This document shows, in pieces, positions 24,337 to 59,249 of a stretch of DNA of 64,000 bases (position 1 is its first letter; each line of letters begins with the position of its first letter). The translations under genes and the position numbers were made by a program. The notes under the pieces are model-generated. The model saw nothing but the letters and a program-made list of their open reading frames with translations, ran no database searches and was not told where the DNA came from. Location: the NCBI RefSeq assembly GCF_003334785.1, contig NZ_QOWV01000005.1; one strand, written 5' to 3'. The stretch comes from Escherichia coli (GTDB lineage Bacteria; Pseudomonadota; Gammaproteobacteria; Enterobacterales; Enterobacteriaceae).

Positions 24337-24450
24337 ATTGCCTGATGCGCTACGCTTATCAGGCCTACACGTATCCTGCAATATATTGAATTTGCAGGTT
24401 TTTGTAGGCCGGATAAGGCGTTCACGCCGCATCCGGCATGACAAAGCGCA
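24337..24450. repeat. REP/BIME pair in the fbaA-mscS intergenic region
   Basis: gcctgatgcgctacgcttatcaggcctac and gtaggccggataaggcgttcacgccgcatccggca. Confidence 0.8.
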
Positions 24451-51962: not shown

Positions 51963-52121
51963 TTGTAGGCCTGATAAGACGCGCCAGCGTCGCATCAGGC
52001 ATCGGAGCACAACTGCCGGATTCGGCGTGAACGCCTTATCCGATCTACGGGCCTCGTCCCTGTTGTGATAAAGGCATCAAATCCCAGACATGATAAGACG
52101 CGCCAGCGTCGCATCAGGCGA
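51963..52121. repeat. REP/BIME cluster (three REP units) between yqfA and ygfZ
   Basis: gtaggcctgataagacgcgccagcgtcgcatcaggc, ccggattcggcgtgaacgccttatccgatctac and tgataagacgcgccagcgtcgcatcaggcg. Confidence 0.85.
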
Positions 52122-56317: not shown

Positions 56318-58051
56318 GTGAAACAACAGATACAACTTCGTCGCCGTGAAGTCGATGAAACGGCAGACTTGCCCGCTGAATTGCCTCCCTTGCTGCGCCG
56401 TTTATACGCCAGCCGGGGAGTACGCAGTGCGCAAGAACTGGAACGCAGTGTTAAAGGTATGCTGCCCTGGCAGCAACTGAGCGGCGTCGAAAAGGCCGTT
56501 GAGATCCTTTACAACGCTTTTCGCGAAGGAACGCGGATTATTGTGGTCGGTGATTTCGACGCCGACGGCGCGACCAGCACGGCTCTAAGCGTGCTGGCGA
56601 TGCGCTCGCTTGGTTGCAGCAATATCGACTACCTGGTACCAAACCGTTTCGAAGACGGTTACGGCTTAAGCCCGGAAGTGGTCGATCAGGCCCATGCCCG
56701 TGGCGCGCAGTTAATTGTCACGGTGGATAACGGTATTTCCTCCCATGCGGGGGTTGAGCACGCTCGCTCGTTGGGCATCCCGGTTATTGTTACCGATCAC
56801 CATTTGCCAGGCGACACATTACCCGCAGCGGAAGCGATCATTAACCCTAACTTGCGCGACTGTAATTTCCCGTCGAAATCACTGGCAGGCGTGGGTGTGG
56901 CGTTTTATCTGATGCTGGCGCTGCGCACCTTTTTGCGCGATCAGGGCTGGTTTGATGAGCGTAACATCGCAATTCCTAACCTGGCAGAACTGCTGGATCT
57001 GGTCGCGCTGGGGACAGTGGCGGACGTCGTGCCGCTGGACGCTAATAATCGCATTCTGACCTGGCAGGGGATGAGTCGCATCCGAGCCGGAAAGTGCCGT
57101 CCGGGGATTAAAGCGCTGCTTGAAGTGGCAAACCGTGATGCACAAAAACTCGCCGCCAGCGATTTAGGTTTTGCGCTGGGGCCACGTCTCAATGCTGCCG
57201 GACGACTGGACGATATGTCCGTCGGTGTGGCGCTGTTGTTGTGCGACAACATCGGCGAAGCGCGCGTGCTGGCAAATGAACTCGATGCGCTAAACCAGAC
57301 GCGAAAAGAGATCGAACAAGGAATGCAAATTGAAGCCCTGACCCTGTGCGAGAAACTGGAGCGCAGCCGTGACACGCTACCCGGCGGGCTGGCAATGTAT
57401 CACCCCGAATGGCATCAGGGCGTTGTCGGTATTCTGGCTTCGCGCATCAAAGAGCGTTTTCACCGTCCGGTTATCGCGTTTGCGCCAGCAGGTGACGGTA
57501 CGCTGAAAGGTTCCGGTCGCTCCATTCAGGGGCTGCATATGCGTGATGCGCTGGAGCGATTAGACACACTCTACCCTGGCATGATGCTGAAGTTTGGCGG
57601 TCATGCGATGGCGGCGGGTTTGTCGCTGGAAGAGGATAAATTCAAACTCTTTCAACAACGGTTTGGCGAACTGGTTACTGAGTGGCTGGACCCTTCGCTA
57701 TTGCAAGGCGAAGTGGTATCAGACGGTCCGTTAAGCCCGGCCGAAATGACCATGGAAGTGGCGCAGCTGCTGCGCGATGCTGGCCCGTGGGGGCAGATGT
57801 TCCCGGAGCCGCTGTTTGACGGTCATTTCCGTCTGCTGCAACAGCGGCTGGTGGGCGAACGTCATTTGAAGGTGATGGTCGAACCGGTCGGCGGCGGTCC
57901 ACTGCTGGATGGTATTGCTTTTAATGTCGATACCGCCCTCTGGCCGGATAACGGCGTGCGCGAAGTGCAACTGGCTTATAAGCTCGATATCAACGAGTTT
58001 CGCGGCAACCGCAGCCTGCAAATTATCATCGACAATATCTGGCCAATTTAG
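56318..58051 (+). CDS. recJ: Single-stranded-DNA-specific 5'-3' exonuclease RecJ
   Basis: 577-aa ORF with DHH motifs (GDFDADG, TDHH). Confidence 0.96.
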   Translation: MKQQIQLRRREVDETADLPAELPPLLRRLYASRGVRSAQELERSVKGMLPWQQLSGVEKAVEILYNAFREGTRIIVVGDFDADGATSTALSVLAMRSLGCSNIDYLVPNRFEDGYGLSPEVVDQAHARGAQLIVTVDNGISSHAGVEHARSLGIPVIVTDHHLPGDTLPAAEAIINPNLRDCNFPSKSLAGVGVAFYLMLALRTFLRDQGWFDERNIAIPNLAELLDLVALGTVADVVPLDANNRILTWQGMSRIRAGKCRPGIKALLEVANRDAQKLAASDLGFALGPRLNAAGRLDDMSVGVALLLCDNIGEARVLANELDALNQTRKEIEQGMQIEALTLCEKLERSRDTLPGGLAMYHPEWHQGVVGILASRIKERFHRPVIAFAPAGDGTLKGSGRSIQGLHMRDALERLDTLYPGMMLKFGGHAMAAGLSLEEDKFKLFQQRFGELVTEWLDPSLLQGEVVSDGPLSPAEMTMEVAQLLRDAGPWGQMFPEPLFDGHFRLLQQRLVGERHLKVMVEPVGGGPLLDGIAFNVDTALWPDNGVREVQLAYKLDINEFRGNRSLQIIIDNIWPI

Positions 58052-58141
58052 CGTCATCTTCTCTATAAAAAAGAGCGTGGATTGGGTACAATCCCGCTCT
58101 TATCACCGCATTTTGACTAGCTCAATAAAAGAAATCAGACC

Positions 58142-59240
58142 ATGTTTGAAATTAATCCGGTAAATAATCGCATTCAGGACCTCACGGAACGCTCCGACGT
58201 TCTTAGGGGGTATCTTTGACTACGACGCCAAGAAAGAGCGTCTGGAAGAAGTAAACGCCGAGCTGGAACAGCCGGATGTCTGGAACGAACCCGAACGCGC
58301 ACAGGCGCTGGGTAAAGAGCGTTCCTCCCTCGAAGCCGTTGTCGACACCCTCGACCAAATGAAACAGGGGCTGGAAGATGTTTCTGGTCTGCTGGAACTG
58401 GCTGTAGAAGCTGACGACGAAGAAACCTTTAACGAAGCCGTTGCTGAACTCGACGCCCTGGAAGAAAAACTGGCGCAGCTTGAGTTCCGCCGTATGTTCT
58501 CTGGCGAATATGACAGCGCCGACTGCTACCTCGATATTCAGGCGGGGTCTGGCGGTACGGAAGCACAGGACTGGGCGAGCATGCTTGAGCGTATGTATCT
58601 GCGCTGGGCAGAATCGCGTGGTTTCAAAACTGAAATCATCGAAGAGTCGGAAGGTGAAGTGGCGGGTATTAAATCCGTGACGATCAAAATCTCCGGCGAT
58701 TACGCTTACGGCTGGCTGCGTACAGAAACCGGCGTTCACCGCCTGGTGCGTAAAAGCCCGTTTGACTCCGGCGGTCGTCGCCACACGTCGTTCAGCTCCG
58801 CGTTTGTTTATCCGGAAGTTGATGATGATATTGATATCGAAATCAACCCGGCGGATCTGCGCATTGACGTTTATCGCGCGTCCGGCGCGGGCGGTCAGCA
58901 CGTTAACCGTACCGAATCTGCGGTGCGTATTACCCACATCCCGACCGGGATCGTGACCCAGTGCCAGAACGACCGTTCCCAGCACAAGAACAAAGATCAG
59001 GCCATGAAGCAGATGAAAGCGAAGCTTTATGAACTGGAGATGCAGAAGAAAAATGCCGAGAAACAGGCGATGGAAGATAACAAATCCGACATCGGCTGGG
59101 GCAGCCAGATTCGTTCTTATGTCCTTGATGACTCCCGCATTAAAGATCTGCGCACCGGGGTAGAAACCCGCAACACGCAGGCCGTGCTGGACGGCAGCCT
59201 GGATCAATTTATCGAAGCAAGTTTGAAAGCAGGGTTATGA
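58142..59240 (+). CDS. prfB: Peptide chain release factor 2, expressed by programmed +1 ribosomal frameshift (join 58142..58216, 58218..59240)
   Basis: Frame 1 reads [25 protein letters not shown] then in-frame TGA at 58217..58219; the +1 frame continues [18 protein letters not shown]... (track ORF 58359..59240) and includes the GGQ motif. Confidence 0.93.
58205..58220 (+). promoter_or_regulatory. prfB autoregulatory frameshift site: internal Shine-Dalgarno-like AGGGGG, slippery CUU, in-frame UGA
   Basis: agggggtatctttgac seen directly. Confidence 0.9.
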
Positions 59241-59249
59241 GGAACCAAC

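Follow-up and report, generated by a model that had tools for sequence, protein, structure and literature searches.

The prfB recoding site of an Escherichia coli genome segment: agreement with the textbook +1 frameshift element and consequences for annotation

The prfB locus and its recoding site

The window analysed here, a stretch of 64,000 nucleotides of Escherichia coli DNA, carries the RF2 gene prfB between recJ and lysS, and the coordinates of these genes, of the parts of the recoding site and of the RNA genes found elsewhere in the window are collected in Table 1. Frame 0, read from the prfB ATG at 58142, comprises 25 codons, the last of them CTT, and is then closed by TGA followed by C. 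An earlier note on this DNA had claimed that the first 25 codons of RF2 lie in a different frame from the body of the gene and that an in-frame UGA at codon 26 is preceded by AGGGGG and CUU, and all these elements were found at the bases where it had placed them. The span that it marked for the feature, 58142-58225, starts correctly at the ATG, but its end at 58225 corresponds to no feature and falls a few bases beyond the site. The frame of the gene body is open from 58164, and a search of that frame from 58164 to 58358 for ATG, GTG or TTG found none, the first methionine being Met73 (58359). It was correctly noted earlier that open reading frame calling reports the RF2 body only from this internal methionine, as the program-made list gives just two frames here, 58142..58219 (25 aa) and 58359..59240 (293 aa). 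The joined reading frame (58142..58216 plus 58218..59240) is 1098 nt long and contains 365 codons and a stop.

Table 1. Coordinates of prfB, its recoding site, its neighbours and RNA genes in the window
Feature	Position	Strand	Basis
recJ, upstream neighbour	56318..58051	+	ORF list; RefSeq annotation
prfB ORF0, RF2 codons 1-25, frame 0	58142..58216	+	Residues 1-25 as in solved E. coli RF2 chains; RefSeq start at same base
Internal Shine-Dalgarno-like AGGGGG, frameshift stimulator	58205..58210	+	3 nt before CTT and 6 nt before TGA; spacing as in PMC12421855
Spacer TAT between AGGGGG and CTT	58211..58213	+	Sequence; spacing equals canonical element
Slippery CTT-T (CTT 58214-58216 and T 58217)	58214..58217	+	CTT TGA C also in L009 and L010
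RF2-specific in-frame stop TGA (58217-58219, codon 26) and C 58220, weak termination context	58217..58220	+	Definition in PMC12421855
prfB ORF1, RF2 codons 26-365, +1 frame, stop TGA 59238-59240	58218..59240	+	TIGR00020; PDB RF2 chains
SPF in ORF1	58755-58763	+	
Ala246 codon in ORF1	58878-58880	+	
GGQ in ORF1	58890-58898	+	
lysS (lysine--tRNA ligase), starting 9 nt after prfB stop	59250..60767	+	ORF list; RefSeq annotation
ES036/CssrF	24361-24403	-	Rfam, above gathering score, 47.3 bits
Sib antitoxin RNA	37475-37625	-	Rfam, above gathering score, 133.8 bits
6S/SsrS RNA	38274-38457	-	Rfam, above gathering score, 139.8 bits
naRNA4/CssrE	51968-52045	-	Rfam, above gathering score, 75 bits

The locus combines an in-frame TGA near the 5' end of the gene, a CTT directly before that stop, a Shine-Dalgarno-like run 3 nt upstream of the CTT and a C after the stop; the gene encodes RF2, the +1 frame has no start of its own and across the junction the joined product matches unshifted RF2 without a break. 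Even when two mismatches are tolerated, the 64-kb window contains a single copy of the 16-nt core, AGGGGGTATCTTTGAC, against a chance expectation of 0.01. In a computed duplex between the AGGGGG region and the 3' tail of 16S rRNA (GAUCACCUCCUUA) the segment UUAGGGGGUAU pairs with the tail over 7 bp at -10.7 kcal/mol, the corresponding value for the initiation region of prfB itself being -1.3. A scan of 57800-59500 against Rfam at E<=1 returned no RNA family, and none would be expected for an element of this kind, a short linear motif rather than a structured RNA. When 57900-59400 was scanned for consensus promoters and terminators, counts were not above those obtained with shuffled sequences, and the scan is uninformative with regard to prfB expression.

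The joined RF2 product

The joined protein aligned over residues 1-365 with RF2 chains of known structure, with a single substitution relative to PDB 1gqe_A (L298V) and a single substitution relative to the K-12 chains (A246T). It scored 525.9 bits against the NCBIfam model TIGR00020 (prfB), for which the cutoff is 370 bits, and covered profile positions 2-353 of 353; the frame beginning at Met73 reached only positions 64-353. In a RefSeq record with 100% identical DNA (NZ_CP025903.1) the prfB coding sequence is given in two pieces and described as a 'programmed frameshift', with ends that correspond to 58142 and 59240 of the window.

The paralogue from which this protein has to be told apart is RF1, the product of prfA, which shares the PCRF and RF-1 domains and whose E. 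coli chains align to residues 28-360. The joined protein fell below the cutoffs of both RF1 models (305.7 vs 400 and 303.8 vs 423.25), and it carries GGQ at residue 250 and, at residue 205, SPF, the tripeptide of RF2. Unlike prfB, prfA involves no frameshifting in the synthesis of its product (PMC12421855).

Comparison with uninterrupted prfB genes

The earlier note had supposed that the joined translation would align across the junction with RF2 proteins whose genes contain no frameshift, and this was borne out. Among the 1.84 billion cluster representatives searched, many RF2 relatives align with the window protein from its first ~15 residues straight across residue 25/26, and the DNA was fetched for six of them. 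In four (L006, L007, L008 and L011, with a GC content of 62-71%) prfB is uninterrupted and its DNA translates directly into the protein on record. The joined protein aligned with all four without a gap across residue 25/26, with Leu25 conserved. These uninterrupted genes, which are GC-rich and for example of the Actinomycetota type, are orthologous to that of the window, with 40-48% identity over nearly the full length, but at the homologous codons they have no Shine-Dalgarno-like run, no stop and no CTT, the leucine being encoded by CTC or CTG. These differences are in line with the published survey of prfB, and no translational autoregulation of the prfB type is expected in genes of this kind (PMC12421855).

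A scoring profile was built from these four proteins. The joined protein (1-365) scored 452.2 bits against it, the body frame extended upstream 440.3 bits, residues 26-365 437.2 bits, the frame from Met73 to 365 406.1 bits and the frame-0 read-through product 2.2 bits. The N-terminus encoded in frame 0 contributes 15 bits, and when residues 2-25 were shuffled none of 500 permutations equalled the observed score (mean 438.8, sd 1.5, max 447.0). One representative, P0121, was set aside; its peptide upstream of the junction is that of the body frame and it looks like a gene call on an indel-bearing contig.

In the two other relatives (L009 and L010) the fetched ranges were of 1,099 nt and a +1 shift is required to read the gene, the sites being GGGTAT CTT TGA C in L009 and GGGTCT CTT TGA C in L010. 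They share with the window, as do prfB sites of other bacteria generally, the Shine-Dalgarno-like purine run, 3-nt spacer, CTTT, TGA and then C (PMC12421855), and differ from it in the length of ORF0, the stop being at codon 18 in L009 and codon 25 in L010, compared with codon 26 in the window. In the protein recorded by NCBI for L010 (GCA_002835675.1, 601-1699) the frames are joined two codons before the slip site, giving RG-LFD where joining at the slip site gives RGSL-D. This mismatch stems from an annotation convention rather than from biology, and it follows that the junction residues annotated for frameshifted prfB genes are not always those that a ribosome would produce.

Conservation and context in E. 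coli

The 1301-nt stretch 58000-59300 had a single match in every complete E. coli genome searched (5,426/5,426) at 95-100% identity, and in every case the locus lies between recJ and lysS. One of the 5,426 loci is on a record labelled as a plasmid rather than a chromosome. Of these genomes, 4,411 have an identical 66-nt region around the site, and the other 1,015 differ from it at one or two positions. Two variants that retain the frameshift, GF131 and DETEC-S586, were examined, and their changes all lie downstream of the core (TAC>TAT, GCC>ACC and CCC>CCT).

From a point upstream of the ATG to the end of the site the K-12 gene is identical to that of the window, with the same 25-codon ORF0, AGGGGG, 3-nt spacer and CTT TGA C, and has the same recJ-prfB-lysS order. 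The K-12-type laboratory strain ME8067 has an identical site, and its sole difference over 58100-59300 is ACG (Thr246), the one coding difference in prfB between K-12 and the window, where codon 246 is GCG (Ala), the canonical non-K-12 allele. The DNA of the window is therefore not that of a K-12 strain. For the Thr246 form of RF2 found in K-12, lower activity and a dependence on methylation have been reported (PMC5373646). Since the K-12-type site is identical, published experiments on E. coli prfB apply directly to the sequence of the window.

At the other end of the gene (59238-59252), prfB finishes with TGA, a codon read by RF2 only, followed by G, and a GGA stands just upstream of the lysS start. 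This motif and the short spacing between the two genes are compatible with co-translation of the pair.

Mechanism and alternative explanations

The feature in the window is almost certainly the E. coli prfB gene with a programmed +1 ribosomal frameshift that autoregulates RF2. The anatomy of the sequence, the identity of the joined product with RF2 that has been purified and solved, its unbroken alignment with unshifted homologues and the conservation of the site are direct observations, and nothing that contradicts frameshifting appeared in this analysis of the sequence. Translation would begin at the ATG at 58142 and proceed for 25 codons, after which the ribosome would pause, its P site occupied by tRNA-Leu on CUU and its A site by the weak UGA-C. 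Where RF2 is plentiful, termination at the UGA would release a 25-residue peptide; where it is scarce, the pause would be prolonged, AGGGGG would pair with the anti-Shine-Dalgarno of 16S rRNA and the P-site tRNA-Leu would re-pair from CUU to the overlapping UUU, so that base 58217 would be skipped, GAC decoded next and the full-length RF2 of 365 residues made from the +1 frame. The kinetic competition, the role of Shine-Dalgarno pairing and the autoregulation are expected in the window by analogy with the literature on the identical sequence. Frameshifting at that E. coli sequence, with an efficiency inverse to the level of RF2, is experimentally established (PMC12421855 and work cited there), and stop codon, stop context and Shine-Dalgarno spacing each affect the efficiency (PMC12421855). 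The prfB frameshift has been called a 'textbook example', was found in 64% of 12,753 genomes and is probably ancestral to bacteria, although missing from Actinomycetota (PMC12421855).

An important consideration is whether the broken frame could be produced in some other way. If it were a sequencing or assembly indel in the window, the true gene would be single-frame, as it is in three RefSeq E. coli records that carry one-base homopolymer deletions at the site. Against this, the 66-nt region is unchanged in 4,411/5,426 complete genomes, the version lacking a T is matched at an identity of at least 99% by only 2 genomes, CTT TGA C preceded by a GGG run is seen again in distant relatives and the element is present in nearly two thirds of the bacterial genomes surveyed (PMC12421855), and an indel is therefore extremely unlikely. 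A reading of prfB as a pseudogene was also rejected. A second possibility is that there are two products and no frameshift, a 25-codon leader frame being followed by a shorter RF2 initiated downstream, for example at Met73 (58359); these are exactly the two frames of the program-made list, and AGGGGG could in principle serve as the Shine-Dalgarno sequence for initiation. But the body frame offers no ATG, GTG or TTG from 58164 to 58359, residues 26-72 are themselves homologous to RF2 (437.2 bits for 26-365 vs 406.1 for Met73-365), a protein starting at Met73 leaves the NCBIfam profile uncovered before position 64, and the solved E. coli RF2 chains hold residues 1-365 contiguously, so that this arrangement too has a very small probability.

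Reading through the UGA in frame 0, by selenocysteine insertion or suppression and without any frameshift, would be favoured by the following C, which makes for a leaky stop context; frame 0, however, continues for only 31 more codons to a TAA at 58313 and the product has no similarity to RF2 (2.2 bits), which makes read-through the least probable of the readings weighed here. The frame might instead be restored in the RNA, if the polymerase slipped on the G5 or T3 run during transcription, with no shift by the ribosome. The site does contain these two short homopolymer runs, but at 3-5 bases they fall short of the lengths known to allow efficient slippage by RNA polymerase, and loss of a G would give ...RGIFDYD..., as in the record for strain BH100 discussed below, in place of the ...RGYLDYD... 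of the RF2 chains, GYL-DYD being the junction peptide reported for E. coli RF2. The dependence of efficiency on stop codon, context and Shine-Dalgarno spacing likewise indicates a ribosomal event (PMC12421855), and slippage is scarcely credible. The programmed ribosomal frameshift of prfB is already known, and the site in the window shows no departure from the textbook case.

Single-frame and broken prfB records

Three complete E. coli genomes carry prfB in a single frame. The O157:H7 strains SS52 (NZ_CP010304.1) and SS17 (NZ_CP008805.1), at 1258-2355 in both, lack one T of CTTTGA and read CTTGAC; they are exact matches to a T-deleted query, and are the only two of the 5,426 genomes to match it at an identity of at least 99%. 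Their prfB is an uninterrupted gene of 1,098 nt encoding the same protein (WP_001701073.1) and carries no 'programmed frameshift' note. The weakest match to the normal site was in BH100 substr. MG2014 (NZ_CP024650.2, 1158-2255), which lacks one G of AGGGGG; its gene is annotated as an ordinary single-frame one (WP_105166511.1), with the peptide altered to ...RGIFDYD.... The deletions in SS17, SS52 and BH100 all fall in homopolymer runs and are probably artefacts of sequencing, polishing or curation. It is improbable either that these in-frame genes represent real natural losses of RF2 autoregulation or that the 25-residue peptide released on termination is functional in itself, the peptide being the second and weaker of these two possibilities.

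A different kind of lesion is seen in NIPH17_0036 (NZ_AP024561.1), where about 60 nt at ~985-1045, corresponding approximately to 58482-58546 of the window, are scrambled inside prfB with a net deletion of 26 nt. The gene is annotated as a pseudogene ('internal stop; incomplete') and its frameshift site is intact. An assembly error is likelier than a true loss, because RF2 is the sole factor that reads UGA.

The earlier note had warned that a naive annotation would truncate RF2. This holds for a plain ORF caller, which splits the gene into frames of 25 aa and 293 aa, the latter without most of domain 1, but does not hold for current pipelines such as NCBI PGAP, which join the two parts correctly. 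The opposite error is also public, in that the frameshift has been 'repaired' by homopolymer deletion in the three complete E. coli RefSeq genomes. As both types of error occur, the prfB site is a useful control when gene callers and assembly polishing are assessed. The locus is a classic case of recoding and translational autoregulation to which nothing new is added biologically, and the practical value of these observations lies in annotation quality.

Other features of the window

The 90-nt spacer between recJ and prfB contains, just after the recJ stop (58071-58101), an imperfect 13-bp hairpin (AAGAGCGUGGAUUG...CAAUCCCGCUCUU), and the spacer as a whole folds at -22.1 kcal/mol (z = -3.4 vs shuffles). 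The hairpin scores as a terminator on the minus strand only, because the T-run is on the minus-strand side. An open frame of 334 aa runs antisense to nearly the entire body of prfB (58203-59207, minus strand), most probably a shadow ORF cast by the coding strand.
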